DNA from: a bacterium
GTDB taxonomy: Bacteria > Elusimicrobiota > Elusimicrobia > Elusimicrobiales > UBA9959
Assembly (NCBI GenBank): GCA_021811185.1
Contig: JAJZPL010000002.1
Span: 90,483 to 154,482 of the forward strand
Direction of reading: 5' to 3'
Length of the DNA stretch: 64,000 nt
Positions 13,761 to 64,000 of this stretch are shown here, in pieces; within the stretch, counting starts at the first letter, position 1; each line of letters starts with the position of its first letter. Under the pieces are notes generated by a model. The model saw only the letters and a program-made list of their open reading frames with translations, was not told where the DNA came from and did not search any database. A program made the translations under genes and the position numbers.

Positions 13761-16250
13761 ATGAAGCTTTTGAAAATATTATCGCTGGGGGCCATGATCA
13801 TGCCGCAGAGCCTTTTCGCCTCGGATACTCTGGTTATACATTACAGCCGCTTGGGCGGCGATTACTTCGGCTGGAACCTGTGGACCTGGAACGAGTCCGA
13901 CAGGAAGCCGGGCTTTGACCTGGCCCAGTCCGGTTCGGACGCCTACGGGGCCGTTTACCGCCTGGATCTTTCCTCTTCGGGCTTCGCCGGGGCCAAGGCC
14001 GGGTTCCTGCCGCGCAAGGGGAACTGGGCCGAGAAGGACTCGCCCGACCGCTTTATTAATTCCGTAAAAGGCGGCGATGTTTTTATTCAGGAGGGGGACG
14101 GCGCGGTCTACGCGGCGCCGCCCGTGATCTCCACCGCCGTCACCGGGGCCTGGCTGGACGGCGACGGCGTGGTGCGCGCGGCTTTTAACCGCCCTGTGGA
14201 CCGGGCCTTCGTCGACAGGCAGGGGTTCTACCTTACGCGCGGCGAGTCGGCTTTCCAGCCGGTGCGCGGCGATACCGCCGGCGGGGCGGCTTATTCCCGC
14301 GCGGCCCTGCTTACCTTCGACAGCCTCGGCAACCCGGATTACCGGGCGCTCAACGCCGGCAAGTACCTGCTGCATTCCCGCGATTTCAAGCCTTTCCCGC
14401 TGGAACTCGGCAAAGCCGTTTACGGCGAGGATTTTAACCCGCGCCTGCCCCTGGGCCTGCTCGAGGAAAGCGGCGCTTCGGTCGTCCGTATCTTCGCGCC
14501 CAAGGCTGTCAGTGCCGAAGTCCTGCTGTACGACCGGCCCGGCGCCAAGCCCGAGGTATACCCGATGACCTACCGCGACCGCGGCGTCTGGGAGAAGAAT
14601 TTCGGGCGCGCGCTCACCGGCGGCTACTACCGCCTGCGCACCGTGCAGGGCGGCAAGACCTACGAGGGGCTGGACCCCTACGCGCGCTGCGTTACCGGCG
14701 ACGCCGGGCTGGCCCAGATCGCCAGGGACACTACGACCGTTGCCCCCGGGCCTTCTTTCGACCTGTCCGAGACCGTGCTCTACGAGGTGCACCTGCGCGA
14801 CCTCACCTCCGACCCCTTTTCCGGCGTGAAGCACCCGCGCGGCTACCTGGGCGCGGCCGAGACCGGCACCCGCCACCCGAAGTTCCCGGAGATCATGACC
14901 GGGCTGGACCATATCGCCGAGCTCGGCGTGAACGCGGTGCATATCCTGCCGTTCCAGGACTTCGAGAACGGCGACAGCACCAGCGCCTACAACTGGGGCT
15001 ATATGCCGGTGAACTTCAATTCGCCGGAAGGCGCTTACGCCTCCAGCCCCGCGGACCTTTCCCGGGTGCGCGAGGCAAAACTGATGATCGACGCTTTCCA
15101 CAAGAAGGGCCTGAAGGTGATCATGGACGTGGTCTACAACCACACGGCCGAGACCAAAACGCGGATCTACAACTTCAACGCCCTGGCCAAAGACTACTAC
15201 TACCGCGCCAATCCCGACGGGACCTATTCCAACGGCTCCGGCTGCGGCAACGAGTTCATGACCGAGGCGCCGGCGGCCCGCCGCTTCCTGCTGGACAGCC
15301 TGCTCTACTGGGTGCGCGAGTACAAAGTGGACGGGTTTCGCTTCGACCTGATGGGCCTGATAGACACCGACACCGCGGCCGAAGTGGCGCGGGTGCTGCG
15401 GCAGGAGAAGCCGGACATCATCGTCTACGGCGAGCCCTGGACCGCCGGGGCCAGCCCCGTGCACGGCGTGAAAAAAGGCAGCCAGCGCTCCAAGGGTTAC
15501 TCGGTCTTCAACGACAACTTTCGCGACGCTATCAAGGGCAGCGTGTTCTCGCTGGCCGACCTGGGCTACGTGGAGGCCGCCCGCAACCGCGACGCCGTGA
15601 TGCGCGGCATCCGCGGCTCGGTGGACGACTTCACCGACGGCCCGCTGGAGACGCTGAACTACGTCTCCTGCCACGACAACCACACGCTGTGGGACCGCAT
15701 CGACCTCTCGGTGAAGGACGAGCCGCTGGCCAACAAGGTGGCCATGGACAAGCTGGCCAACGCGCTGGTGCTGACCTCGCAGGGCGTGCCGTTCCTGCAC
15801 GCCGGCGAGGAGTTCCTGCGCACCAAGAAGGGCGAGGAGAATTCCTACAACCTGCCTGACGAGATCAACCGCCTGGACTGGACCCGCAAAAAAGAGAACA
15901 TGCCGGTCTTCGAATACTACCGCGACCTGATAGCGATGCGCAAAGCCCACCCTGTCTTCCGCATGTCCACGGCGGCCGAGGTCAGGGAGAATCTCAAGTT
16001 CTACGAAGAACTGGGGCTGAAGGTGGAGCCGCCGGCCATCGCCTACATGCTGTACGGCAGCCGCGAAAAGGACAACTGGAACCGCGTGCTGGTGCTGGTG
16101 AACCCGCTGAAGACCGCGCTTAAGTTCGCCCTGCCCCAGGGCTCCTGGCTTACCGCCTTCGACGAGAAAGGGCTGGTGAAAGAGCCGGGCGCGCCGCATA
16201 CGGGTTCTTACGAGGCGCCGCCGCTGTCCCTTACGGTGCTGAGACTTTAG
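13761..16250 (+). CDS. pulA: Type I pullulanase (GH13)
   Basis: YNWGYMP, MDVVYNHT, DGFRFDLMG, YGEPW, SCHDNHTL; N-terminal CBM41-like domain. Confidence 0.92.
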   Translation: MKLLKILSLGAMIMPQSLFASDTLVIHYSRLGGDYFGWNLWTWNESDRKPGFDLAQSGSDAYGAVYRLDLSSSGFAGAKAGFLPRKGNWAEKDSPDRFINSVKGGDVFIQEGDGAVYAAPPVISTAVTGAWLDGDGVVRAAFNRPVDRAFVDRQGFYLTRGESAFQPVRGDTAGGAAYSRAALLTFDSLGNPDYRALNAGKYLLHSRDFKPFPLELGKAVYGEDFNPRLPLGLLEESGASVVRIFAPKAVSAEVLLYDRPGAKPEVYPMTYRDRGVWEKNFGRALTGGYYRLRTVQGGKTYEGLDPYARCVTGDAGLAQIARDTTTVAPGPSFDLSETVLYEVHLRDLTSDPFSGVKHPRGYLGAAETGTRHPKFPEIMTGLDHIAELGVNAVHILPFQDFENGDSTSAYNWGYMPVNFNSPEGAYASSPADLSRVREAKLMIDAFHKKGLKVIMDVVYNHTAETKTRIYNFNALAKDYYYRANPDGTYSNGSGCGNEFMTEAPAARRFLLDSLLYWVREYKVDGFRFDLMGLIDTDTAAEVARVLRQEKPDIIVYGEPWTAGASPVHGVKKGSQRSKGYSVFNDNFRDAIKGSVFSLADLGYVEAARNRDAVMRGIRGSVDDFTDGPLETLNYVSCHDNHTLWDRIDLSVKDEPLANKVAMDKLANALVLTSQGVPFLHAGEEFLRTKKGEENSYNLPDEINRLDWTRKKENMPVFEYYRDLIAMRKAHPVFRMSTAAEVRENLKFYEELGLKVEPPAIAYMLYGSREKDNWNRVLVLVNPLKTALKFALPQGSWLTAFDEKGLVKEPGAPHTGSYEAPPLSLTVLRL

Positions 16251-39618: not shown

Positions 39619-39695
<77 letters not shown>

Positions 39696-51054: not shown

Positions 51055-52377
51055 TCAGGGTTCGTCTATGTACTTGCGGGTTTCCGCCGCGACCACCGGG
51101 GCCAGCAGCAGCAGCGAGATGAGGTTCGGAACGGCCATCAGGCCGTTGAAGATGTCGGCGAAATTCCAGACGGCCGGCAGGGCAGCCACGGACCCCACCA
51201 TGACGGCGGCTATCCAGAGGTACCGGTACGGCATCACGGACTTCACGCCCAGCAGGTATTCCGCGGCTTTCTCGCCGTAGTATTCCCAGCCCAGGATGGT
51301 GGAGAACACGAAGGTCAGTAGCCCCAGGCTGAGCACCGCCGGCCCTATATATGGAATATGGGAGAAGGCGCTCTTGGTCAGCTCCGCCCCTTTCAGCCCG
51401 CTTTGCCAGTCGCCGGCGCTCACGATAACCAGGCCCGTCATCAGGCACACGACCACGGTGTCCCAGAAGGTGCCCGTGGAGGAGACCAGCGCCTGCCGCA
51501 CCGGGTTCCTGGTCTGGGCGGCCGCGGCCACTATTGGGGCCGAGCCCAGGCCGGACTCGTTCGAGAAAAGGCCGCGCGCGATGCCGTAGCGCATGGCCTC
51601 TTTAACGCCCGCGCCCATAAAGCCGCCGACGGCGGCCTGGCCGGAAAACGCGGAAGAGATGATCAGGGCGATGGTCCCCGGCAGCCTGCCGAAGTTCAGC
51701 AGCAGGATCAGCCCGCAGCCCAGCACGTAGAAGACCGCCATGAACGGCACCAGCTTTTCGCACACCCTGGCGATGGACTTTATCCCGCCGAGGATAACGA
51801 CCGCGGTGAGCGCGGTCATCGCCGCGCCGCTGATCCAGGCGGATAGCCCGAAGGTGTGCCGGAGCATCTGGGCGATGGAATTGGCCTGCACCATGTTGCC
51901 GATGCCGAAGGCGGCCACGGCGGTGAAGAAGGCGAAGATCACGCCCAGCCACCTGGCGTTGAGGCCGCGCTCCAGCACGTACATCGGGCCGCCGGAGATC
52001 TCGCCGTTGGGGAGCGTGACGCGGTATTTCACGGAGAGCAGCGCCTCGGCGTACTTGGTGGCGATGCCGAACACCCCGGTGAGCCACATCCACAGCACGG
52101 CGCCGGGGCCGCCCGCGGCCACCGCCGTGGCCACGCCCACGATGTTGCCGGTGCCGATCGTGGCGGCCAGCGCCGTCATCAGCGCGCCGAACTGCGAGAT
52201 CTCGCCCGCGCCCTCTTTCTCCCGGCTGAAGGAAAGTTTTATGGCCTTGGGCAGGTGGCGCTGGATGATCCCCAGCCTGAAAGTAAGGTAGAGGTGCGTG
52301 CCGAAAAGCAGGATGATCAGCGGCGCGCCCCAGACGAGGGCGCTGGTCCTTTCAAGCAAGGCGTTAAAATTTTCCAT
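51055..52377 (-). CDS. Sodium:alanine (AGCS) symporter
   Basis: TIGTGNI.GVA, GGPGA, GGPMY, RGLFSNESGLGS. Confidence 0.95.
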   Translation of the reverse strand: MENFNALLERTSALVWGAPLIILLFGTHLYLTFRLGIIQRHLPKAIKLSFSREKEGAGEISQFGALMTALAATIGTGNIVGVATAVAAGGPGAVLWMWLTGVFGIATKYAEALLSVKYRVTLPNGEISGGPMYVLERGLNARWLGVIFAFFTAVAAFGIGNMVQANSIAQMLRHTFGLSAWISGAAMTALTAVVILGGIKSIARVCEKLVPFMAVFYVLGCGLILLLNFGRLPGTIALIISSAFSGQAAVGGFMGAGVKEAMRYGIARGLFSNESGLGSAPIVAAAAQTRNPVRQALVSSTGTFWDTVVVCLMTGLVIVSAGDWQSGLKGAELTKSAFSHIPYIGPAVLSLGLLTFVFSTILGWEYYGEKAAEYLLGVKSVMPYRYLWIAAVMVGSVAALPAVWNFADIFNGLMAVPNLISLLLLAPVVAAETRKYIDEP

Positions 52378-52472
52378 CCGTGAATTCTAACTTATTTCGC
52401 CGTCCCCAGGGCCTGGCCGCCGCCGTTCGCAGTGAAAACCGCTTAAGCGTCCCGGGCCGTTCAGCCGGGTTT

Positions 52473-52501
52473 TTGTAAAACCCCTGTTAATTTACTAATA
52501 T
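52473..52501 (+). promoter_or_regulatory. Sigma-70 promoter for tRNA-Thr fragment
   Basis: TTGTAA-17 nt-TAATAT about 15 nt before the tRNA 5' end. Confidence 0.55.
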
Positions 52502-52516
52502 ATATTGACGTTATTC

Positions 52517-52560
52517 GCCGAGGTAGCTCAACTGGTAGAGCGTTCGCTTCGTAAGCGAAT
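52517..52560 (+). pseudogene. tRNA-Thr(CGT) 5' half, interrupted; island attachment site
   Basis: GCCGAGG-TA-GCTC-AACTGGTA-GAGC-G-TTCGC-TTCGTAA-GCGAA, then no T-arm or 3' acceptor strand. Confidence 0.85.
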
Positions 52561-52713
52561 TAGACCCTCATAAAAACCCCTAAATTTGACCTCAAACCGG
52601 CCTTTCCCATGGCCTTGAGCCTCCAATGAGAGCGCCCCACTTTGCCATGTTTAATTTTTGATCGAAAGTATTCTGCTCATTCCAATGCCAATTTAGCTCA
52701 ATTTTGTCCTAAT

Positions 52714-52747
52714 TGTCCACCAAATAGCCACCGAATTAGCCACTAAA
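52714..52747 (+). repeat. Three short direct repeats (candidate integrase arm-type sites)
   Basis: TGTCCACCAAA / TAGCCACCGAA / TTAGCCACTAAA about 155 bp inside the island end. Confidence 0.5.
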
Positions 52748-52970
52748 AAAAACTGTCCATTATCCTTGGCTTTAGGCCTGGCTAAAGTCCGAGGAATGTG
52801 GCAAAGCCTGAAATAGGCCCCAAACCTGCCTTAAAACGCAGTTTCAGGCCCTTTAAGGGGCTTTCTGTGTCGGGGAGTGGAAGCTTGATTGTCGCGTTTA
52901 GCGCGTTAAATACGAAAAAATCCGCCGCAACCAAATAAATGAATAGTGTTGGCGGATTAAGTTGGGGGAT

Positions 52971-53363
52971 TTAAGCGCTTTTAAACTGAGCGACCAAGGA
53001 TTTGGCTATTTTGATAATACGCTTGCGGTTCTTCGGAGAACTACTGCGAAGGATCTTAATTAGGGAGAGCAGGTCTTTGTCTTCTGCCGGAGAAAAATAC
53101 ATTGCTGTTTTCTCACGAGTTGCCGAGACCGCCTGCAAGCTGGCTCCTGCCGCCCCGGCAAGTAAGTCCGTAATAGGCTTTTTCAGCCCATCAGCTATCT
53201 TTTTAAGATTGACCAGCGAGGGATTGCGCCTGCCGCGCTCTACGTCACCCAGGTAATTCGGATGGAGCTGCGCCCGGAAAGCTAATTCCTCAAGAGTCAG
53301 GCAGTCCGCTAGCCTGAATTTACGGATATTTTTGCCTACCAGCGCTTGTATCTTTACGTCCAC
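52971..53363 (-). CDS. XRE-family HTH regulator (C-protein-like)
   Basis: GKNIRKFR...LTLEELAFRAQLHPNYLGDVERGRRNPSL. Confidence 0.92.
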   Translation of the reverse strand: MDVKIQALVGKNIRKFRLADCLTLEELAFRAQLHPNYLGDVERGRRNPSLVNLKKIADGLKKPITDLLAGAAGASLQAVSATREKTAMYFSPAEDKDLLSLIKILRSSSPKNRKRIIKIAKSLVAQFKSA

Positions 53364-53439
53364 ATTTCCTCCGAACCGATATTAAATTTTATTCAATGCC
53401 ACCCCCTTTAGCCACAATGAATAAGTGTTGCGCTCTATT

Positions 53440-53468
53440 TTGACAATACCACGGATAAGTGGTATATT
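53440..53468 (+). promoter_or_regulatory. Sigma-70 promoter with palindromic operator in the spacer
   Basis: TTGACA-17 nt-TATATT enclosing ATACCAC-GGATAA-GTGGTAT. Confidence 0.7.
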
Positions 53469-53568
53469 TTTTTGATATGGGACTGGGCGCCTCACTGCAT
53501 TTCTCCTAAATGTTCGATTAAGTCCTGGATAAATAATTGATTCTGAGCCGTTTGCTAAGGAGCATCTA

Positions 53569-53964
53569 ATGAGAAAGAACGTACTTTTCCTGGTTGGCTT
53601 ACTTGCAATGGCAGCCTGTGCCACTGTCGAACCTGTCTGGAGAACTATTCCCGAATCCGAATACCCTTATAAGAAAGCATGGCCGATCATCGTAAGTACG
53701 ATAAGCAATAAATTCGATATTGCCACTATCGACGCTAATTCCGGTTATATGCGGACAGATTGGAAAATCAAAAAAGACATGTTCGGCACTCCTAAAACAA
53801 GGACTAGAATGGCGGTGAAGACGGAAAGCAAGCAGCCGTTAAAGTTCAGTTTTCGGGCGGAAGTCGAAAGTTGGAACGCTTTCTCCGAGAGTTGGACCCC
53901 CAAGGGCAATGACGCCACCATCGAGAGCGACATCCAAGAAGAATTCGCGTCCCGGCTTAAATAA
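53569..53964 (+). CDS. Hypothetical lipoprotein (BamC-domain-like)
   Basis: Lipobox MAAC; DANSGYMRTDW; SD AAGGAG. Confidence 0.7.
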   Translation: MRKNVLFLVGLLAMAACATVEPVWRTIPESEYPYKKAWPIIVSTISNKFDIATIDANSGYMRTDWKIKKDMFGTPKTRTRMAVKTESKQPLKFSFRAEVESWNAFSESWTPKGNDATIESDIQEEFASRLK

Positions 53965-54042
53965 TTACCAGACGTTAAGAGTTAGGACATAGTTCTCGCC
54001 GGATACTGCCGGCTATATACTCACAAATTGCGGGGGTTTCTT

Positions 54043-54351
54043 ATGGTCCAATATGATGAGAAGATAATCGAGACGTTTGCCGAGGAGCTTTATCGCGAAG
54101 CGGCATCCCTTGTGTTGAAATCCACACTGAAATGGACATTTATCGGCGTATTAGCGGGTGGAATCGGGGGGGCTGGGGCAGGAAACTGGGAAAACTCTGC
54201 CAACGCTTTAATAGCCGCTGTACTTGCCGGCGCGGTCTGCGGCTCTATCGGATATAGTCTCGGCAAGCGCCGTATTTTCACCCTGAAACTGCAAGCTCAG
54301 ACAGCGCTTTGCCAAACGCAGATAGAGCGTAACACCCGCAAAACAGAATAA
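54043..54351 (+). CDS. Small two-TM glycine-rich membrane protein
   Basis: Two hydrophobic Gly-rich helices, C-terminal LKLQAQTALCQ.QIE.NT. Confidence 0.65.
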   Translation: MVQYDEKIIETFAEELYREAASLVLKSTLKWTFIGVLAGGIGGAGAGNWENSANALIAAVLAGAVCGSIGYSLGKRRIFTLKLQAQTALCQTQIERNTRKTE

Positions 54352-54520
54352 TCGGGCAAATAGCGGGGACTGCAATGTGTGTATACATACCAATACCACA
54401 TTAACAACTAACGGTGTAAGCTGCTTTTTTGGGAGATAGTCCAATGGTTGTATACGTACGAAGTGTAGCGGAATCTATGAAATCTGTTGTGTGCCGAGCT
54501 TCGGAAGAAGAGGGGAAATA

Positions 54521-55759
54521 ATGAACGTATTTACTCGGTGGATCTTATTCCTGCTGTCTGCTGGTATAACTTCGATAGCCTTTGTAACAGATAGTACTGC
54601 CAAAGTGTTCGGCGAACTTGAGGTGTATTCCCCTGGGAAGGTTGCAGAGGGTGAAGAAGTAAATCTTAAAAAAGTCGCCGCTGCACTTGTGGCAGGAGGC
54701 TCTGACTCAGCCGGATATACCATTACAACGCCCGTCGCTTTTGGCGGACGATTAGGGATACTTTACCCTGTGCAAGACGTCGGAGACCTTGGGATTAGCG
54801 TGGGATATGTCGCCGGTCCAACGTCTGAAGTTAAAGTTACAGATAAAGACCCTGGCATAGGGACAAGTCATTTCGACTATACCAGGGAGTTGAGTTTTGT
54901 TCGCGCCTTGTTCGAATATAGGAAAGAATTTTCAATTAACGATAACTGGGCTTTCTTCCCGGCGTTCGGGGTGGGGATGGGGTTCGGGGCTGAGAAAAAT
55001 AAAGTAAAAATGGCTACCAATTTTTTTGCCGGGGATTCACTTGAGTCGGCAAAATGGAGCGGGCTGACTTGGGAAGTAACTTCCGGATTTGCGTATAAGA
55101 TGGACAGCTCTGATTTAACAATTGCTGTGCGTTACGCGGCTTTTCCGTCATTTAAGGGTGATACCGCCAAAGGGCTGGCGAAAGTGGACTGGGGAACTAT
55201 AGGATTTTCCTTCGGACTAGGGTTTGGTGGGGGAAGGTCCTTAACGCCCTCAGCAAAATATTATGGTTCTCCCCAAAAAACCGACGAACACAGTTCCAAA
55301 GACATGGAACCCGCAGATCCGATCGAGCCTGTAGCAGCGCCCGAAACTTCAGAGAGCGTTGAAAGTTATGATACTTATGTGGGTTATGCAGAAGATTATG
55401 TCTCCCAGGGGAATTATTCAAAGGCTCTTAATGAATATGACAATGCGTTGGCGCTTTTGCCCCCTAATGATGCACGTAAAGTGTATATCTGGGAAAGGAA
55501 AGGCTCCGCGCTGTCTGAGAAAAAAGATTACATTAAGGCCAAAGGCTTTTATGCTTTTTCAATAAAGACCGCTAAGGGCCTTCGTGTTTCAAATGCGTCG
55601 GTAGTTAATGCCTATTTGGGGTTAGCTTATTGCTTGGAAAAAACCGCGAATACTTCTGATGCCATCCGAAATTATGAGAAAGCGCTCCAGCTTTCTACCA
55701 ACACCAGAACTAAAGCAAGAATAAGAAAGATCATCCAGAAATTAAAAACGCAATCATAG
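54521..55759 (+). CDS. Outer-membrane beta-barrel-like domain fused to TPR repeats
   Basis: Signal peptide; alternating beta-strand region ending IGFSFGLGF; acidic/Pro linker; TPR helices (AYLGLAYCL...AIRNYEKAL). Confidence 0.6.
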   Translation: MNVFTRWILFLLSAGITSIAFVTDSTAKVFGELEVYSPGKVAEGEEVNLKKVAAALVAGGSDSAGYTITTPVAFGGRLGILYPVQDVGDLGISVGYVAGPTSEVKVTDKDPGIGTSHFDYTRELSFVRALFEYRKEFSINDNWAFFPAFGVGMGFGAEKNKVKMATNFFAGDSLESAKWSGLTWEVTSGFAYKMDSSDLTIAVRYAAFPSFKGDTAKGLAKVDWGTIGFSFGLGFGGGRSLTPSAKYYGSPQKTDEHSSKDMEPADPIEPVAAPETSESVESYDTYVGYAEDYVSQGNYSKALNEYDNALALLPPNDARKVYIWERKGSALSEKKDYIKAKGFYAFSIKTAKGLRVSNASVVNAYLGLAYCLEKTANTSDAIRNYEKALQLSTNTRTKARIRKIIQKLKTQS

Positions 55760-56092
55760 TTAAGCTTTTTGCAAGAATTACCCCCAAACAGGTTGAGCTA
55801 AGACATCTTTCGATTGAAAGATGGTGAAGTCGAAAGTGCTTAGAGCCTGAAAGCATGATCGTAACCTCCTGATTTTTGCCTAAAAAACTTGGTGTATTCC
55901 ATTGGGCTCTCCACCTATTATTTGTCACTGGTGTTTTCTTCATTAAAGATTCAATCGCCAAAAACTGACGTTAGCAGCCCGACACTACGTTGTCGGGTTG
56001 TTCTGCTACACTATTTTGTAAAAGTGATTGCCGCTGAAGAGTTAGAATATGTTCAGGCCCTTGCCAAATTAAACATAGCCCGCTACGCCCCT

Positions 56093-57130
56093 ATGGAAAA
56101 CATCCTGAGTATTTCTTTGAAAGCTAGTAATGTCTCTCCCCAGGGCTTTCACGACTTCGAGAAGATGGCGAAGGTTTGCCATGAGTACATGGTCTCCTTT
56201 GCAACCGAGGTCGGAATGCCTAAAAGGATAGAGCTAATTCTGGCGGAGAATTTTGATGAAGTCGTTTCAGACATATTAGGGAAATCTGACACTGCAAGTG
56301 GCAGATTTTCTTCTGCTCGTCCTCACGGTTGTGTGGTGGGGAAAAATATTGTTAAGGACGATTCTTGGGATCATGTTGTAATCGTTTTCAACGCAACATT
56401 TTGGGACTGCACAGCAAACAGCAACTCTGGGAACGTGCTGTTACAACTCGGACTTATTGCCCACGAACTCGCCCATCCGTACATTGACAGGATGAGATTC
56501 CGAAGCGGAGCCGTAAAAGTCGCCACGACAGACGCTTTAGAACTGAACGTCAGAAACCTGTCCCGACTTATAATCGATGAGTATTTTGCTGATCTAATTG
56601 CGGATGCTATTGTTGTGATAGCGACCCGGAAACCTACAGACGCTGGCGTTACTCCCGTGCATATGTGGGATATCTTGGGAACCAATCAGATCGACACACT
56701 CAGAACTTATCTGACAGATAACTGCGCTGCCCTCCCGAATTATGCGAATGAATATAGAGCTAATAAAATTACTTTCCAAGTGATGTGGGGGGAAATATTG
56801 TCTGGGATCGAACAGTTGTTCACTATATATATCCATGCAAGGGCTTTTGCAGACGCCACTAAAACCGAGATTCCCATATTCGACTCCCCAGAAATCCAAG
56901 CAGTCCCTTTTGTCCAAAAATATATCCCGAAGTCATCGATGCAGTTCCTGGATCAACTTAGGAAGTATCGTCCGCCAATGTCATTGGGCGAATGGCATAA
57001 CATGGAAGCAGTATTGCTTCCTGCGGGGGAAAAATCTTTTCTGGAAATATGGGAGTTGTTATGTGTCCCAAAAATACCCACGCCACCCAGTTTATTGCAT
57101 TTAGTATGGTCATATCTGATGAGAGTTTGA
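56093..57130 (+). CDS. Hypothetical HExxH zincin-like protein
   Basis: IAHELAH with downstream DEYFADLIA; start uncertain. Confidence 0.6.
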   Translation: MENILSISLKASNVSPQGFHDFEKMAKVCHEYMVSFATEVGMPKRIELILAENFDEVVSDILGKSDTASGRFSSARPHGCVVGKNIVKDDSWDHVVIVFNATFWDCTANSNSGNVLLQLGLIAHELAHPYIDRMRFRSGAVKVATTDALELNVRNLSRLIIDEYFADLIADAIVVIATRKPTDAGVTPVHMWDILGTNQIDTLRTYLTDNCAALPNYANEYRANKITFQVMWGEILSGIEQLFTIYIHARAFADATKTEIPIFDSPEIQAVPFVQKYIPKSSMQFLDQLRKYRPPMSLGEWHNMEAVLLPAGEKSFLEIWELLCVPKIPTPPSLLHLVWSYLMRV

Positions 57131-57266
57131 ACGGGCAAGGCAATACGCTAAAATTTTATATCTTATTCTGGATCTTGTAGTTGAATGTGCCCGTCGTTGA
57201 CACTGATGATTGGAAGTTATAGGCTCTTCTGGGTGGACGAGCCGCCGGCTTGTTTAAGGACTACAA

Positions 57267-58379
57267 ATGAACGTACAGTGTTGCGAGAATTGTTTTCTTG
57301 AGCCAAGTATTCGAAATTATATCCATAAAATCGGATTGGTCTCAAAGGAGCCATGTGAGTACTGCGGCTCAATAGAGATGCCGAGTGTTGAGGTTTCTAC
57401 TCTTAGGGAGCTTTTTGAACCTGTAATTCAAAAACATTATCTTACCTGCGATAACCTTAGTCAATATCGGCACGAAGACCCTGGCAATGGTGAGGACCTC
57501 GTTACTCTTCTTGACTCTGACTTCGGAGTGTTTTCCGAAGAGGTCGAAGATAGTTGTGAGCTTCTTAACGATATACTAAATCTAGATCGTGATCAGTGTG
57601 AGCCTGAAATGGATCCGCGCGACTCGTGGTTCAGGATTGACGATGATTGGGGATACAGATCGCCTGAAGAAGAACACGATGAGGCACTTTCCACCCTAAC
57701 TGATGCGATAGAAACTCACGGGAGTGGAATTACTATTCTTTTGTCACGTAAGCGGCTTCCGGCAGAGGTTGGATATGCGTGCGCGGATATTTTAAATGCA
57801 TTAACGCACTCCTCGCTTAAGGCCGGGGAATTGTTGTGGCGTGCGAGGGTTGGAAATTGGGATGATGTGGAGCAGATAAAAGCTCCTCCCTCTCATTGTG
57901 CGAAGCCTGGGCGTTGCAGTCTGGGGGGGCAACCTGTGCTGTATGTCGCATCATCTCGTGACACGGCTGTGAGCGAAGTCCGTCCCAGCAAGCGGGATAT
58001 TGTTTCAGTCGCCCAGTTCAAGCTTAAATATGATGTCAAGATTTGCGACTTACTCTCTGTTCCGGTTGTTGCATCGCCGTTTACCGAGTTTGATGCCTAT
58101 TGTCTGGAACTCCGAAGGAAGGCGTTAGCTGACACGTTAGGTCAAGCCTTAGCCAAGCCTATAAGACCGGATGAGGAGCCAAGGGAATATCTCGTGACAC
58201 AAGTTCTCTGTTATCTGATATTCGATAAAGGATTTGACGGTATTCGGTATCATTCCTCCCAGCATGACGGCGGCGTAAACATGGTTTTCCTGGAACCAGA
58301 GATTGCAGAGCCGGTCGCAACATCGTTTAGCCATGTCACGGTAAAAGCGGTTTCTTACAGTATTGGGGAAGGTCAATAA
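57267..58379 (+). CDS. RES-domain protein with Cys-rich N-terminal domain
   Basis: CCENCF...CEYC; LWRAR, GR...VLYVA...AVSEVRP, FDGIRYHSS, NMVF. Confidence 0.88.
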   Translation: MNVQCCENCFLEPSIRNYIHKIGLVSKEPCEYCGSIEMPSVEVSTLRELFEPVIQKHYLTCDNLSQYRHEDPGNGEDLVTLLDSDFGVFSEEVEDSCELLNDILNLDRDQCEPEMDPRDSWFRIDDDWGYRSPEEEHDEALSTLTDAIETHGSGITILLSRKRLPAEVGYACADILNALTHSSLKAGELLWRARVGNWDDVEQIKAPPSHCAKPGRCSLGGQPVLYVASSRDTAVSEVRPSKRDIVSVAQFKLKYDVKICDLLSVPVVASPFTEFDAYCLELRRKALADTLGQALAKPIRPDEEPREYLVTQVLCYLIFDKGFDGIRYHSSQHDGGVNMVFLEPEIAEPVATSFSHVTVKAVSYSIGEGQ

Positions 58380-58499
58380 GCCGACAACCGCTTAATGGGT
58401 GAAAATCCAGAAGGGAATATTTTTTTCACTGTTTAAGTGAAAGTACGCGAAGCACTCTGCATTTTAGTGTTGCCATTGCCGCTATTCTTGTGATCCGCA

Positions 58500-59063
58500 T
58501 TAAAACAAGCAGGTTGCTTCAGTACGGAATGGCGTTTGTGTCGTTTCGGGAGTGCGCCGGATGTATTCCACCGCGCTTGCGCGCGTCTTCGGATCTAGAT
58601 TCTTTAGATATTCTAAGGCTGTCGCTACGGAGAATGGTTGCTTGTATACCTCTTCAAAATTTGAGGTTAAGGCGGTCCAAACTATAGCATCGAATCCTTG
58701 CTGAATAGCCCAACGGCGAATAGTTTGGCAGGCGGAAGGATGCTGAGTGTGTGCCCAGGTTTGTACCGTGTCAGTCCGTAAATTTATAAATCCTATTCTG
58801 CTTTGATTGCTGCGCTCTCTTTTTCCCAAGTCGATAATGCTTTCATCCAACACATTGCGTGAACTGGTAATAAATTGAGTTGATACGGGTGCCCCATTAA
58901 TGGGGTCAATCACCAGCGTCAAGCAGCCAGCTCTGACACCTCTTTGAGAGATACGAGAAAACTCAATTGGTATAACTGGACCGCCAGTCTGCCAGTCACC
59001 AGTGACGGGTAATTCTCCACGCTCAGTAATTAAGGAGCCCCATCCAAGGATTGCAATCTTCAT
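58500..59063 (-). CDS. Hypothetical protein, gamma-glutamylcyclotransferase-like N-terminus
   Basis: MKIAILGWGSLI resembles the GGCT/AIG2 YGSL loop; starts 10 bp after the SMC ATPase stop. Confidence 0.65.
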   Translation of the reverse strand: MKIAILGWGSLITERGELPVTGDWQTGGPVIPIEFSRISQRGVRAGCLTLVIDPINGAPVSTQFITSSRNVLDESIIDLGKRERSNQSRIGFINLRTDTVQTWAHTQHPSACQTIRRWAIQQGFDAIVWTALTSNFEEVYKQPFSVATALEYLKNLDPKTRASAVEYIRRTPETTQTPFRTEATCLF

Positions 59064-59073
59064 AGGAAGGCAT

Positions 59074-61023
59074 TTATTTACCCCGATACTTTTTGATAAG
59101 TGGGGGATTTTCCACATCATCCGGTTTCATATGTCTTTCCTGGAAATCCAGTTTCTTGGGGTCTTCTGGACGAAATATCTCTTTATCTATTACTATGAAC
59201 TGAGTTCCTTTTAATTCAGTTTCCGCTAGCTTATGAAGCATTTTGTGGAACCCTGCAAATTGCATGAGATTCTCTCTTTCGCTGACGTTTTTCATTGGTG
59301 AATCAATAATTAAAATCGTTGGCAATGTTACGCCATTCCTTACTGCCAATCTGTGAATAGCAACCGCAAAACAACATTTAAAGAATGTTTTTTTACCTCC
59401 ACTGCCCAAATTGGCAAAGGAAGTTCGCACTATATCACCAGTACTTTGACCGTAGACTTGTGGTAGGAATTTTGGGGAGTTTATTTCCACAGAGTCGTCA
59501 GATTTAAAGCCGTGGAGATGAGACTTTACCAAACAATCAAGGAATAACTCCTTAAGAAGATCCAGGTTTGAAGTATCCTTCTCCGCTTCAGCACGCACGA
59601 TTTTTAATTCAGCCCTAATTTCGGCTTCACGGCCTGCCAATTGAATAGTTTCTTCCTGAAGTTTCTCTATTTTATTTGCCAAAGCCTCTACCTGCTGCAA
59701 ATCCTCTGTCCTCTGTATGAGTCGCGCGCGTTCTTTTTCAAATGCCAATGCTGCGGCCAAGTATTTGGAATCATACTCTCGCAATGCCTGTTCTAAATCG
59801 TTATCGACCGTCGTTTTTTCACTGGCAATATCTTGCCGTTGGCGTTTTAGACGTCTCGTTTCCTCTAATTGCAGGTCAATCCGTTCCTGCAATTCATCTG
59901 CGCGGGCCTTTGTATCTGCCTCAATTGCGTCATCATTGATGGGACTTTGCGGCATATCCTGGTGGGCCTGTCCGCAAACGGGGCAAAGAGTTCCATCCTT
60001 GGGCTCCAAAGGTTGATAGCACTGAGGACACTGTATAAACTCTATACCCGTCAAAACGGAGCGAGCGGCTTGTGCTCGTTTCTGGCGAGTCGCCAATGAG
60101 AGAAGTGTATTTCTATGGCTTTTATCTCTTGCAATAGTTTGTTCAAGATCATCCAAGGCAGCATCTGTTTCCGCTATTTGGAAGGAGAGTTTGCGGCCTC
60201 TCTGTTGCAAAAGCTCCGTCTCATGGGAACGTAATTTTCCAGTTTCGGTGCGTATTTTTTGTATCTGAATCTCTAACCTTTCAACCTCAGCCTTAATCTT
60301 TTGACGAAGGGCCTCAATTTCCAGGGGCGTAGCCAAATGTTCTACAGCGAGAGCTTCCTTAATGGCCTCTGCCGCAGATTCACAGCGAAGTTTCTTGTCT
60401 TTCACCAACTCTAATTCTGCTTCTAAATCGGATACTCTTTCTTGGTGGAAACCCAAAATCAGGCGCAAAACGTCACGGCTTTTCAATTGAACGGCAAAGT
60501 TTGCCGCTTCATCAAGATTAAAAAAACTGCTGTCCATCGACTCCTGATTAAGGTAACAGTACCAAAACATATCGCGGAAGCTTAATCGGACGAGTTCAGA
60601 TTCTTCTTTAAGTTTACTTTTGCGGACGTGTGGGGGGGTAACTCCTGCCAAACGGAATAACAAGTCTGAAAGCACTTCAATTCCAGTCCCTATAAGGACT
60701 TCACCATTAGCCACCTTGCCTGGAATTAAAACGTCATAAGGTTGATCTTTTTCTGTCCACTGGGCGTGGATTTTGTTTTCGCCGGAATTCCGAGTGAGAA
60801 AAAGTGGCGTCCCATTTATTTCAATGTCTAAAGTCGCCGACACGAACTCCTGTTGCAGGGCTGGAGTATATTCCAGTTTGCCTCCGAGACAGAAATCGAT
60901 TAGGCGGGCGATGGTTGACTTGCCGGACCCCATTGGCCCGTAGTAATAATTAAACTTGGAAAAAGTCAGAATATCATTCTCTTTCTTGCAGTTCAGTGTG
61001 AGTTGTCGGATGTGGAAATTCAT
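59074..61023 (-). CDS. lmuB: SMC/Rad50-like ABC ATPase (Lamassu / ABC-3C sensor)
   Basis: Walker A GPMGSGKS, coiled coils around CPQC...CPVC, signature LGSGG, Walker B ILIIDSP. Confidence 0.85.
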   Translation of the reverse strand: MNFHIRQLTLNCKKENDILTFSKFNYYYGPMGSGKSTIARLIDFCLGGKLEYTPALQQEFVSATLDIEINGTPLFLTRNSGENKIHAQWTEKDQPYDVLIPGKVANGEVLIGTGIEVLSDLLFRLAGVTPPHVRKSKLKEESELVRLSFRDMFWYCYLNQESMDSSFFNLDEAANFAVQLKSRDVLRLILGFHQERVSDLEAELELVKDKKLRCESAAEAIKEALAVEHLATPLEIEALRQKIKAEVERLEIQIQKIRTETGKLRSHETELLQQRGRKLSFQIAETDAALDDLEQTIARDKSHRNTLLSLATRQKRAQAARSVLTGIEFIQCPQCYQPLEPKDGTLCPVCGQAHQDMPQSPINDDAIEADTKARADELQERIDLQLEETRRLKRQRQDIASEKTTVDNDLEQALREYDSKYLAAALAFEKERARLIQRTEDLQQVEALANKIEKLQEETIQLAGREAEIRAELKIVRAEAEKDTSNLDLLKELFLDCLVKSHLHGFKSDDSVEINSPKFLPQVYGQSTGDIVRTSFANLGSGGKKTFFKCCFAVAIHRLAVRNGVTLPTILIIDSPMKNVSERENLMQFAGFHKMLHKLAETELKGTQFIVIDKEIFRPEDPKKLDFQERHMKPDDVENPPLIKKYRGK

Positions 61024-61595
61024 AATTCGATGGGGTTCCCCCATTTCATGGAAATTATTTCAGGGACTATTTTGTATACGAACGATGTTAGTTTGGTTGA
61101 TGGCATATGCCCTACTGCCCCATTAACCGTCTTCGCTCTTTCGACAAGGGCGGTAAATCCATTATCCGCTTCCAATCTACCCGCCAGGGTCTTGCCGGCT
61201 TCAGTAAGTTGTATTTTCACTGTTCTGCCTTCGCGATAAACTATTGCTAATTGCTTTGCCACTAAGATGCTAAGCCATCGGCGATATCTGGGATCCCAGG
61301 GCCCAAAGCGAAATCGTATCATCCGGGCCTCAATAGTATCCCTGTCTTCTTCTGGTATGCCAGAAGTGGCAGCCTCAGCTGTTTCCCCTGGTTTTTTTAG
61401 TTCCGCCAACGCACGCGCTAGGACATTTGGATAACGGAGCAAAAAATCCATCTTTGCCAGCTTCATTATCCCTTCCAGTGGCCTGGGTGTCTTTCCCCTG
61501 CCTGCGGCAACCTTTAGTAACAGTAATAGCCGTGCTTCATTGAACTCATCAGAGTTTTCTATAGCAGCGGCTGTTTTAAGAATTCTTAAACTCAT
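61020..61595 (-). CDS. lmuC: ABC-3C middle component (kleisin/wHTH-like)
   Basis: ARLLLLL...KLAKMDFLLRYP...RFGPWD...LTEAG; 4-bp overlaps with both neighbours. Confidence 0.72.
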   Translation of the reverse strand: MSLRILKTAAAIENSDEFNEARLLLLLKVAAGRGKTPRPLEGIMKLAKMDFLLRYPNVLARALAELKKPGETAEAATSGIPEEDRDTIEARMIRFRFGPWDPRYRRWLSILVAKQLAIVYREGRTVKIQLTEAGKTLAGRLEADNGFTALVERAKTVNGAVGHMPSTKLTSFVYKIVPEIISMKWGNPIEL

Positions 61596-62857
61596 GATTT
61601 TTCTTCTAAATCGAATTTATCACTCCACCAAACTAAACAACTTTCGGTTAAGATCCCAGCCATACCCATTAGCGCCTCATACGGTTGGTGCGCTACTTTA
61701 CCAGGCTCGCTTTTAGCTATCTGGCGTAATCTGTCTTGCACGCTAATTAACATCCGCTGGCCATAAGGGGCTGCCCCCTGTGCTGCGCGCAATTGCGCAT
61801 CGTCGCATTCCGTCTTAACCACATTTTCTATCTGCACTAATTCAGCTTCGGTCTCCGGTCCACGCGTAGCCATTTCCAAGAAGATTGCTTCTGCGGAGAG
61901 CAACTGCGTACGTAAAGAATATGCATTGTTATCAAGGCCGCCTCGCTTGAGCTTTAAGTCAAAGCGTCGCTTATCCTTGCCTGTTTGCTTGAGGGGTTGC
62001 GTGGTGAGAGTCGGCAAATATCGGAAGGTCGGTGTTGTTAGATCACGACTTCTCAAAACGAACTCATCCACCGTTATTCTCTTGAAAGTTAGTTGGGGAT
62101 CTGGCTGTCCATCTTCGATATGACGAGGAAGGTGTCTCGCCGCGTCCTGAGCTGAAAGAGAGGATGCCCCAGTTACCATCGAGATCATATCTCGCACCAA
62201 GGGTTCCAATTTGTCTTGCGGGAGGCGACACCAGTCCAGTTGCCTTAAGTGGTTTTGTGCAAGCTCCGCGACAAATGATTCTCGAGAAGGGGGCAATTTT
62301 GCAAAACCGAATTTTTGAAGAACTGCGAATAGTTCTTCCGGAGTGGTTTTTGTTGTGACTTTGGCGAGCAAGGCATTAAAGCCTTTCGTCTCGGGGTCTG
62401 ACAGTGCGGTTGAGGATGCACTGGCAAGAACTGCTGAAACAAGACGCTGCGGAGAAAGATGCGTGGTCGCAGAGGCGTCACTCTCCGAAGACTCAACATT
62501 GGTAACAAAATTAAAGTGCTTAAAGCGCCCAGGGAAACGTTTGTTCAATCTTAAGAAGCCATTAATAGCGCTAACAAAGGCATCGTCTGTTAAGTTCCAC
62601 TTTCCGTTTTCCGGCTTTCTAGTTTTAACTTGGTAGGCATCGAAAGACTTGTCATCAATTTGCGCTAGGACATCGTCCTCCTGCTCACACCAGACGGCTA
62701 TATAGTCCCTTTTGCCAGCTGCAGCAGCAACAAGCAATACGACAGCATACGCTGATTGGTAACAAAAATTGCGGAATGTCTCGGCGCCAATATCTTGCGC
62801 GGGCAATTGTGTGATAGGACTTGGCAGTTCTGTATTAGAGTGTTCTTCAATTGACAT
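61592..62857 (-). CDS. lmuA: Cap4-like (DUF4297) dsDNA endonuclease effector
   Basis: G....RNFCYQ, CEQEDDV, YQVKT restriction-like motif; C-terminal GILTESCLVWW adaptor-type domain. Confidence 0.8.
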   Translation of the reverse strand: MSIEEHSNTELPSPITQLPAQDIGAETFRNFCYQSAYAVVLLVAAAAGKRDYIAVWCEQEDDVLAQIDDKSFDAYQVKTRKPENGKWNLTDDAFVSAINGFLRLNKRFPGRFKHFNFVTNVESSESDASATTHLSPQRLVSAVLASASSTALSDPETKGFNALLAKVTTKTTPEELFAVLQKFGFAKLPPSRESFVAELAQNHLRQLDWCRLPQDKLEPLVRDMISMVTGASSLSAQDAARHLPRHIEDGQPDPQLTFKRITVDEFVLRSRDLTTPTFRYLPTLTTQPLKQTGKDKRRFDLKLKRGGLDNNAYSLRTQLLSAEAIFLEMATRGPETEAELVQIENVVKTECDDAQLRAAQGAAPYGQRMLISVQDRLRQIAKSEPGKVAHQPYEALMGMAGILTESCLVWWSDKFDLEEKS

Positions 62858-63080
62858 GGCTAAGCATGTAGCAGTTTAGTTGCCACTTTGATCAGTCTTG
62901 CGCCCAAATACCGCAGATTTGCAATTAATGATTCCAAATCCCGGCCCTAAAGTTATAATACAAAAAAGTTAGGGGAGCAAACAGTTGCATAATTGTTTGC
63001 AGTTCAGCACTATTTCATTGTAAACAAGAAATTTTGCGTAAAAATTTGTAAAGTTGATGTTACTAGCTGGGGGAATAACA

Positions 63081-64000
63081 ATGAGCCTTACCTCTTTAAT
63101 CAGGTCTTCTGATTCGGAAACCAAACGCTTCTTCGATAAGCATTTCCCGAACGTGACTGAGGCTGTGAAATTAATTAATCAAGATCTGGCTGCTAAAAAG
63201 CTTCACGACTGTCTACCGAAAAAATCACCTGGACATGTATATGGCTGGGTGGGAACCGCTTTTGATTACAGGGCTAGATACTATTTAAAAATCACTCCAT
63301 ATAAACAGTTAATGGCCTATAGTGGCGGGAAAATATTTGAAAACAACCAAACCTTCGGAAAAAATCTTGACGCTTGGCTCCGAAGAACCCAAAAGCCTAA
63401 AAAGAAACTTACTGCCGTGCAAGAAAGGAATATCTGCTTGCTCACTCTTCTACTAGCTAAACTGGAAGTGTTGGGGCGGGCGTATATGGTCGAGTCTCCA
63501 GTGGAAGTGTTAGGCGAGGTGCACTATCCTATAGTAAAAGAAGCCATTGCGCAGCCGACGATCGCCAAGACACTCAAAATCCTTGCGGGCAAGTACGACC
63601 CTAACGTGGTTAAGGACCTTGCAGCGCTTTCCAGGATCTTTCGGAAGAATCTAGTGGCCTGGAATGTTCGTGCTTCTGTATTGAATCCTTTATTCGCCGG
63701 CAGTGCCGATGTCGGAGGCGCGGATGCTGATTTGATCCTTGGGTCTGTGTTAGTTGAAATTAAATGCAAGAAGAGAGCTATCGGGCGCAACGATATCTTT
63801 CAGCTAATCGGGTATAAACTGCTGGATTATCGGAATTGGTATGGGATCGATTGCCTGGGGATATATTTCGGGAGATATGGCATTCTTGAATACTGGCCGA
63901 TACAAAAGATGTTCAAGGGCTTGGGCTGCTCAATAAGCAGCATAAGCAAGCTGCGCGAAAAGTTCAGGCGCGCCATAGAGAAAGATATGCGATTTATTAA
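63081..64000 (+). CDS. PD-(D/E)XK nuclease-like protein (3' end outside the window; absent from the ORF track)
   Basis: Open from ATG 63081 (SD GGGGA) to the window end; my translation gives GTAFDYRAR, LNPLF, GGADADLIL...VEIKC, QLIGY. Confidence 0.75.
   Translation, partial: MSLTSLIRSSDSETKRFFDKHFPNVTEAVKLINQDLAAKKLHDCLPKKSPGHVYGWVGTAFDYRARYYLKITPYKQLMAYSGGKIFENNQTFGKNLDAWLRRTQKPKKKLTAVQERNICLLTLLLAKLEVLGRAYMVESPVEVLGEVHYPIVKEAIAQPTIAKTLKILAGKYDPNVVKDLAALSRIFRKNLVAWNVRASVLNPLFAGSADVGGADADLILGSVLVEIKCKKRAIGRNDIFQLIGYKLLDYRNWYGIDCLGIYFGRYGILEYWPIQKMFKGLGCSISSISKLREKFRRAIEKDMRFI

Follow-up and report, generated by a model that had tools for sequence, protein, structure and literature searches.

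Probable reversed insertion of a defence island into the single tRNA-Thr(CGT) gene of an Elusimicrobiales bacterium

What becomes of a tRNA gene when mobile DNA is inserted into it, and which half of the gene does the element itself bring along? This question is raised by a locus at which a promoter-like region and the first part of a tRNA-Thr(CGT) gene run directly into unrelated DNA. The locus lies within a 64,000-nucleotide stretch (termed here the window), which corresponds to C3:90483-154482 of the genome G000, a draft bin of 79 contigs and 3.09 Mb that is 93.6% complete and has an estimated contamination of 5.2%; relatives are labelled G001, G002 and so on by genome, and contigs are denoted by C. 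The analysis described here points with high probability to an island of at least 31.5 kb, equipped with a tyrosine integrase and anti-phage defence cargo, that has been inserted site-specifically and in a reversed manner into the single tRNA-Thr(CGT) gene, the tRNA being rebuilt at the far junction (attR).

The junction within the window

The features at this junction, including those assigned provisionally as parts of an attachment site, are as follows.

51055-52377, minus strand: sodium:alanine symporter gene, the host left flank (440 aa; Pfam PF01235, E 4.1e-140)
52473-52516, plus strand: promoter-like region of the host tRNA-Thr(CGT), original and orphaned (by sequence reading)
52510-52558, no strand: putative shared att core region, GTTATTC plus tRNA nt 1-42 (49/49 identity between the C3 and C7 junctions)
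52517-52559, plus strand: displaced 5' fragment of tRNA-Thr(CGT), the tRNA part of attL (42-nt identity to C7:14597-14638; Rfam)
52548-52554, no strand: anticodon loop TTCGTAA, the proposed 7-bp overlap region, with inverted repeats TTCGC and GCGAA on either side
52560-52760, no strand: putative element-side arm (P' arm) of the attachment site, with TAGCCAC direct repeats
52560-64000, no strand: left part of the island (GC 0.43-0.48; G016 empty site), continuing to the end of C3 and resuming at C7:1-14596

The symporter gene is transcribed away from the tRNA fragment, and its homologue in the relative G016 directly adjoins an intact tRNA-Thr(CGT). The region between symporter and tRNA (window 52380-52470) is about 33 nt longer in G000 than in G016 (…GTGAAAACCGCTTAAGCGTCCCGGGCCGTTCAGCC…).

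The stretch ahead of the fragment was taken to be a host-like promoter in the preliminary description of this DNA. The elements in question are present, namely TTGTAA (52473-52478) and TAATAT (52496-52501) with a spacer of 17 nt, and a AATTTACTAATATATA block is invariant upstream of tRNA-Thr in G000 (both copies), G016, G024 and G007; a sigma-70 consensus scan, however, did not call the pair, which matches at 8 of 12 positions where the tool requires at least 9. Its position and conservation nevertheless suggest that the TTGTAA/TAATAT stretch served as the promoter of the host gene.

The fragment itself comprises tRNA nt 1-43, that is, the acceptor 5' strand, the D arm and the anticodon arm (GCCGAGG-TA-GCTC-AACTGGTA-GAGC-G-TTCGC-TTCGTAA-GCGAA), with the anticodon CGT at 52550-52552. 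Because nt 1-42 are 100% identical to the start of an intact tRNA-Thr(CGT) gene on contig C7 (E 3.3e-14 within the genome), the fragment is no chance match, and its earlier characterization as a perfect 5' half extending through the anticodon arm is borne out; position 43 is A in the fragment, which makes the stem perfect, and C in the intact gene. The same holds for the statement that what follows is unrelated DNA: sequence reading finds neither a T arm nor an acceptor 3' strand after 52559, ARAGORN calls no tRNA at 52517-52559, and with the Rfam tRNA model the fragment, lacking a T arm, scores 25.7 bits and so falls short of the gathering score (29). At this point the GC content drops from 0.63-0.66 to 0.43-0.48, and it stays low through the end of the window and on towards the end of C3; the DNA after the fragment averages about 46% GC, as against 61% for the genome. 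The sole ARAGORN call in the window is an intact tRNA-Met(CAT) at 39619-39695 on the plus strand.

The far junction and the site in relatives

Two consequences of such an insertion had been envisaged: that the far end of the element provides the 5' half, or that integration inactivates tRNA-Thr(CGT) and excision restores it, which would amount to a recombination switch on the decoding of ACG. A switch would be in keeping with the lack of a restored tRNA at the promoter-proximal junction and with the frequent use of ACG by this host, which was correctly anticipated (in 1048 long ORFs, ACG makes up 28% of the Thr codons and occurs 11.7 times per 1000 codons). An intact tRNA-Thr(CGT) gene and an integrase gene are both found on contig C7.

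C7:9443-10531, co-directional with the tRNA: tyrosine integrase (362 aa; PF00589 Phage_integrase E 1.4e-26, plus Int_N and Phage_int_M)
C7:14597-14669, plus strand: intact tRNA-Thr(CGT) (ARAGORN; Rfam tRNA 68.3 bits, full model)

Among the 40 tRNA genes that ARAGORN finds in the whole G000 assembly this is the only tRNA-Thr(CGT), and the assembly contains no copy of the 42-nt block beyond the C3 fragment and this gene. Nor is the 3' half absent genome-wide, a possibility that had also been considered: the host 3' half is part of the C7 gene. It is the first consequence, then, that agrees with what is found, inasmuch as the intact gene is preceded by an island-borne promoter-like block and nt 1-42, whereas a switch is contradicted by the very presence of an intact tRNA-Thr(CGT) at the other junction. 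Moreover, no gene for the tRNA-Thr(UGU) that had been proposed to read ACG by wobble, and that might serve as a back-up, was found in the 79 contigs of this 93.6% complete bin, and all of the sister elements examined rebuild the tRNA in the same way. A translational switch is therefore considered very improbable. Since no tRNA-Thr(UGU) was found, the host would probably pay heavily for losing tRNA-Thr(CGT), and this is in line with selection for elements by which the tRNA is rebuilt.

The 14.6 kb that precede the intact gene (C7:1-14596) are low in GC (0.38-0.56), and the composition becomes host-like past the tRNA. Fragment and intact tRNA both lie on the plus strand of their contigs, i.e., in direct-repeat orientation, and the island parts assembled on C3 (16.9 kb) and C7 (14.6 kb) give the minimum size of 31.5 kb. 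The tail of C3 overlaps neither the head of C7 nor any other contig end of G000; because the two parts thus lie on separate contigs without end overlap, the middle of the island is unseen.

Immediately upstream of the intact tRNA, 7 nt are identical to the window copy and a further 50 nt are clearly related to it. Over about 75 nt this island-borne block shows homology to the sequence that natively precedes the tRNA in G016, agreeing with it in 50 of 71 aligned columns, the invariant AATTTACTAATATATA among them; the orphaned copy agrees with G016 in only 42 of 102 columns, so that the island-borne copy is the nearer of the two. Likewise, the island copy has GTAG where the orphaned host region has GACG, and GTAG is also found in G016 and, at most about 15 nt upstream of the tRNA start, in six other G000 tRNA genes. 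The sigma-70 consensus scan at the C7 junction did not call the island-borne copy. In sister elements whose upstream DNA is unrelated, TATAAT-like or extended -10-like sequences are still present. Given the homology to G016, the GTAG motif and the TATAAT-like sequences of the sisters, the island-borne block is tentatively read as a working promoter, in which case the rebuilt tRNA-Thr(CGT) would be under island control.

Many G000 tRNA genes have an extended -10-like motif (TTTTGnTATAAT / TTTGTAGAAT) ahead of them and GTAG about 8-12 nt before the start, and upstream of six tRNA genes there is a conserved, GC-rich element resembling a hairpin (…CCGCCCCGC…GCGGGGTGCGAC…). Within the genus, three distinct types of upstream or promoter region occur at tRNA-Thr(CGT), and G011, G003 and G001 have the type of the G021 island ahead of their tRNA as well; these three genomes may harbour related islands or their remnants.

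An empty site of the kind that the preliminary description proposed to look for in relatives is present in G016 (contig C29). There, the matches to the C3 left flank (81% identity) and to the C7 right flank (83%) are contiguous and overlap at about -49 to +42 of one intact tRNA, the left match extending from the symporter gene to nt 42 and the right one starting at -47. Because both flanks adjoin around this single intact tRNA, the site is an empty one; at E<=1e-30, G016 has no relative of the island integrase.

An occupied site is seen in G021 on a single 764-kb contig, on which the fragment (545729-545770) and the intact tRNA (from 514304) have the integrase between them. Along this contig, GC-rich DNA leads to the promoter and the 42-nt fragment; 31.5 kb follow that are for the most part lower in GC, and after these come another promoter-like block and the intact tRNA. 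This arrangement bears on the suspicion that the G000 fragment is an assembly or binning artefact, with a chimeric junction at 52559/52560, as might be feared of a contaminated draft bin (5.2%, 79 contigs) whose two junctions are on different contigs. With the full layout on one contig of G021, misassembly is ruled out as a general explanation; fragment and tRNA also share a contig in G089, G013, G137 and G174. Furthermore, the element-side arm that follows the fragment is conserved in G000 and G021 and partly in G003, something that a chimera would not reproduce, and an artefact thus has very little to recommend it. Annotation should accordingly treat 52517-52559 as an island boundary (attL) rather than as a lost tRNA, and the boundary on C7 links two contigs of the draft.

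G006 was considered as an empty counterpart of the G021 site and set aside as not clean: its right flank matches (92%), and on the left the match is confined to 113 nt of promoter and tRNA. In G003, an attL-like fragment is on C89, an intact tRNA on C25 and a partial integrase match on C66; no integrase relative lies within 15 kb upstream of the intact tRNA on C25.

A host tRNA broken at its own promoter is also the outward sign of tRNA-dependent lysogeny, which is described for mycobacteriophages (PMC10865867): the common core is short, the host tRNA is not rebuilt, and a separate, complete phage tRNA gene of the same isotype compensates. In G000, by contrast, the common block measures 49 bp as against a core of about 10 bp, a rebuilt tRNA is present at attR, where the host 3' half and right flank are attached to it, and the assembled island parts contain no free-standing tRNA gene, which leaves such compensation with scarcely any probability.

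Integrase, attachment site and cargo

The integrase ORF is full length, and the R, HxxR and Y motifs are visible in its sequence. It ends 4.1 kb upstream of tRNA-Thr(CGT), and the solved structures nearest to it in sequence are 5c6k_A ('Integrase'; E 3e-20) and the HP1 integrase 1aih (E 7.7e-18). Its counterpart in G021 is 74% identical and occupies the same relative position, with the tRNA 6.1 kb downstream.

Where such an integrase would exchange strands is suggested by the tRNA sequences at the junctions. The core of attL is a perfect 5-7-5 dyad (TTCGC-TTCGTAA-GCGAA). The blocks of identity in the sister elements extend as far as nt 37-46, where the anticodon loop or its stem comes to a close: to the last anticodon-loop base in G137 (Arg-TCT, nt 38) and in G002 and G105 (Val-CAC, nt 37), and 1-6 nt past the loop in the others. 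Because attL and attR differ within the D loop in G003 and G043, the crossover is placed 3' of nt 16-18. The crossover is thus probably at the anticodon loop, with the loop as overlap region. An anticodon loop and stem serving as overlap and core is the classical layout of tRNA attachment sites according to PMC8371274; the G000 element would resemble that layout in overlap and core and departs from it in that the homology runs the opposite way.

Candidate arm-type sites flank this core. The arm in the window contains two TAGCCAC direct repeats (52725-52731 and 52737-52743), and the corresponding arm of G021 bears (T/A)AGCCACC three times, equally 157-190 nt away from the core; the opposite arm contains a set of three in G000 as well as in G021, situated 80-115 nt ahead of the intact tRNA. 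On each arm, repeats of the TAGCCACC type thus occupy matching positions in the two elements. Across the whole window TAGCCAC occurs 6 times as against 5.5 expected, i.e., at chance level, and it is the clustering and conserved position of the (T/A)AGCCACC repeats that argue for their being arm-type integrase sites.

From these elements the reversed insertion is reconstructed, with high probability, as follows. In the attP of this island, tRNA nt 1-42 and the promoter-like region ahead of them take the place of the 3' part that elements of this kind mostly bring. The crossover falls within or next to the anticodon stem-loop; the likeliest overlap is the 7-nt loop, and the likeliest core sites for the integrase are the two arms of the stem. 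The products are, on one side, an attL (window 52473-52760) made up of the putative host promoter, a dead 43-nt 5' fragment and an element arm and, on the other, an attR (C7 ~14480-14669) made up of an element arm, the putative element-borne promoter and the 5' half joined to the host 3' half. The cell retains an intact tRNA-Thr(CGT) gene, which is now preceded by element DNA.

Whether the island could still leave in this way is a separate matter. It is conceivable, though on balance unlikely, that the reversed integration took place as described and that the island is now fixed, decayed or composite and no longer excised. The middle of the island, between C3 and C7, is missing and may hold more than one element; GC content is heterogeneous, reaching 0.52-0.55 in the final 2 kb of C3; neither a free attP nor a circular form came to light; and the orphaned host region has diverged from the GTAG of the island copy, G016 and the six tRNA genes. 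A scan of metagenome contigs with an 18-nt attL/attP junction pattern returned 13 loci, none with the tRNA 5' part upstream, and these were dismissed as chance matches in unrelated DNA. Against decay stand the full-length integrase with its catalytic motifs, the 49/49 identity of the att copies, the occurrence of a single fragment and a single intact copy in the assembly, and an HTH_17 protein of the excisionase type; together these are consistent with an island that may be mobile at present.

The genes found on the assembled parts of the island include the following.

52971-53363, minus strand: HTH_3 'control protein'-like regulator (130 aa; Pfam PF01381 E 1.3e-11; PADLOC Control_protein E 1.3e-14)
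57267-58379, plus strand: RES-domain protein (370 aa; Pfam PF08808 E 1.6e-17)
59074-62857, minus strand: Lamassu-type operon, with LmuA, LmuC and LmuB adjacent and co-oriented (PADLOC and Pfam)
61592-62857, minus strand: LmuA with Cap4-nuclease domain (PADLOC 8.3e-22; Pfam Cap4_nuclease)
61020-61595, minus strand: LmuC (PADLOC 1.3e-12)
59074-61044, minus strand: LmuB (PADLOC 1.5e-74)
C7:2478-5804: large ORF of 1108 aa with no match at all
C7:6074-6583: HTH_17 (excisionase-type) protein (Pfam)
C7:6593-8316, plus strand: AAA_23/PtuA-like N-terminus of 174 aa, overlapping the next ORF (425 aa) in another frame
C7:10667-14389, plus strand: ORF of 1240 aa between integrase and tRNA (PADLOC PD-Lambda-4_A E 1.3e-21 over residues 201-729; no Pfam match)

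The first island gene, that of the HTH_3 regulator, faces the orphaned promoter, which is antisense to it, and no terminator was called between the two. With LmuA (effector), LmuB (SMC-like ATPase) and LmuC, which belongs to some Lamassu types, all together, the Lamassu-type operon is predicted to be complete; the Pfam domains within it are Cap4_nuclease and AAA_23. A TPR protein is further cargo and, beyond the window, the island encodes a PDDEXK-like protein, a NERD protein, a PtuA-like ATPase fragment and a type II methyltransferase fused to HTH_17; the two overlapping ORFs at C7:6593-8316 may be a frameshifted or split ATPase gene. Judged by these predicted genes, the island is a defence island and does not look like a prophage.

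Related systems and the integrase clade

The expectation, stated in the preliminary description, that elements in tRNA genes normally supply the 3' half is right for the majority and does not hold throughout: according to Table 1 of the Islander paper (PMC4383910), the displaced fragment is a 3' one in 3760 of 3919 islands and a 5' one in 159. The G000 element is like the latter in that a tyrosine-integrase element occupies a tRNA gene, with the displaced 5' part upstream and a rebuilt gene at the far junction. It is unlike earlier 5'-fragment tDNA islands in its host, Elusimicrobiales (a new phylum for such elements), and in that the habit is common to most of its integrase clade. Zhao & Williams (2002, J Bacteriol 184:859), who are cited on this subject along with archaeal cases, are said to have reported tDNA islands with 'reversed target gene orientation'. 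A literature search found no report of such elements in Elusimicrobia, which does not prove that none exists. The G000 arrangement is thus rare but already described, and the clade-wide bias is its only modestly new part. Island finders that seek 3' fragments only would miss the G000 element.

Comparable arrangements are known from other integrases. The pTN3-like integrases of archaeal (Thermococcales) plasmids and viruses, as portrayed in PMC8371274, have the 5' half of a tRNA gene as attB, a choice called 'seldomly encountered in bacteria'; once they have integrated, the tRNA gene is again uninterrupted, and its expression is driven by sequence of the element. Likened by description, they share with G000 the 5'-half attB and the restored tRNA; G000 differs in having the 1240-aa ORF between integrase and tRNA and a separate, native-like promoter-like copy directly upstream of the gene. 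Integrases specific for dusA (PMC4482086), again likened by description, also target a 5' end, but that of a protein-coding gene. The HP1/P2-type ('class I / A-site') integrases, to which HP1 as one of the solved structures nearest in sequence belongs, resemble that of G000 in using a dyad-symmetric anticodon stem-loop as probable core and overlap; the identity block of G000, in contrast, runs from the anticodon arm to the 5' end and the promoter rather than to the 3' end. HP1 uses a site in the anticodon region.

To what extent is the reversed layout a property of the integrase rather than of this one island? Relatives of the integrase (E<=1e-30) are present in 62 of the 201 genomes of the order, and the best 30 loci were surveyed, each with 1.5-kb flanks. 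At 14 of these a tRNA gene lies just downstream of the integrase gene and co-directional with it; at 3 it is convergent, which is the usual layout; and at the remaining 13, including those of G000 and G021 with their tRNA 4.1 and 6.1 kb downstream, the flank contains no tRNA. In other words, 14 of the 17 loci with an adjacent tRNA are co-directional, in contrast to the roughly 4% of islands with a 5' fragment in Islander's Table 1 (PMC4383910). The co-directional targets are Val-CAC (3), Thr-TGT (4), Arg-TCT (2), Pro-GGG, Ala-GGC, Arg-GCG, Phe-GAA and Ser-TGA, and the convergent ones Gly-GCC (2) and Val-TAC; the reversed habit extends over at least 9 different tRNA targets.

With G000 and G021 added there are 16 co-directional cases, 13 of which were covered by a search for displaced fragments (that is, all but G028, G150 and G098). 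A 5' fragment was found for 9 elements among the 16.

Same contig, upstream: G021, G089 (11.75 kb), G013 (6.1 kb), G137 (6.3 kb), G174 (18.0 kb)
Another contig: G000, G002, G105, G043

No fragment was found genome-wide in G138 and G059, or in the remainder of the contig in G026 (7.3 kb), G055 (3.8 kb) and G059 (8.8 kb); the convergent control G061, extended to 26 kb, likewise has no 5' fragment. When the 30 integrases are arranged in a maximum-likelihood tree, co-directional loci occur throughout the larger subclade (15 of 20 rows), inside which the convergent Gly-GCC pair is nested; as the tree is rooted at the midpoint only, no ancestral state is claimed. Taken together, gene order and fragments suggest that this Elusimicrobiales clade mostly works by the reversed, 5'-fragment mode. 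The clade is thereby a natural set in which to ask why an element comes to carry the one or the other half of a dyad-symmetric tRNA site, and how costly it is for a host to cede its tRNA promoters to mobile DNA.

A broader reading can be put forward as speculation that is more probably wrong than right by a good measure: that capture of the 5' half is the normal mode of the whole Elusimicrobiales clade, that the tRNA genes concerned are run from mobile-element promoters, and that the orphaned host promoters, being strong and tuned to growth rate, fire into the islands. The genes affected would be those for Thr-CGT, Thr-TGT, Val-CAC, Arg-TCT and Ser-TGA and, probably, Pro-GGG, Ala-GGC, Arg-GCG and Phe-GAA. 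If this were true, the orphaned promoter of G000, antisense to the HTH control protein, could couple regulation or excision of the defence island to the growth state of the host, and it would release a stable 5' tRNA-half RNA.

Two tRNA genes with the integrase on their 5' side have 3' fragments as well: the Arg-TCT gene of G055:C61 is followed after 53 nt by a 3' fragment of 30 nt, and the Val-CAC gene of G105:C120 after 132 nt by one of 21 nt. In both G055 and G105, the two ends of one tRNA gene appear to be used by different elements.
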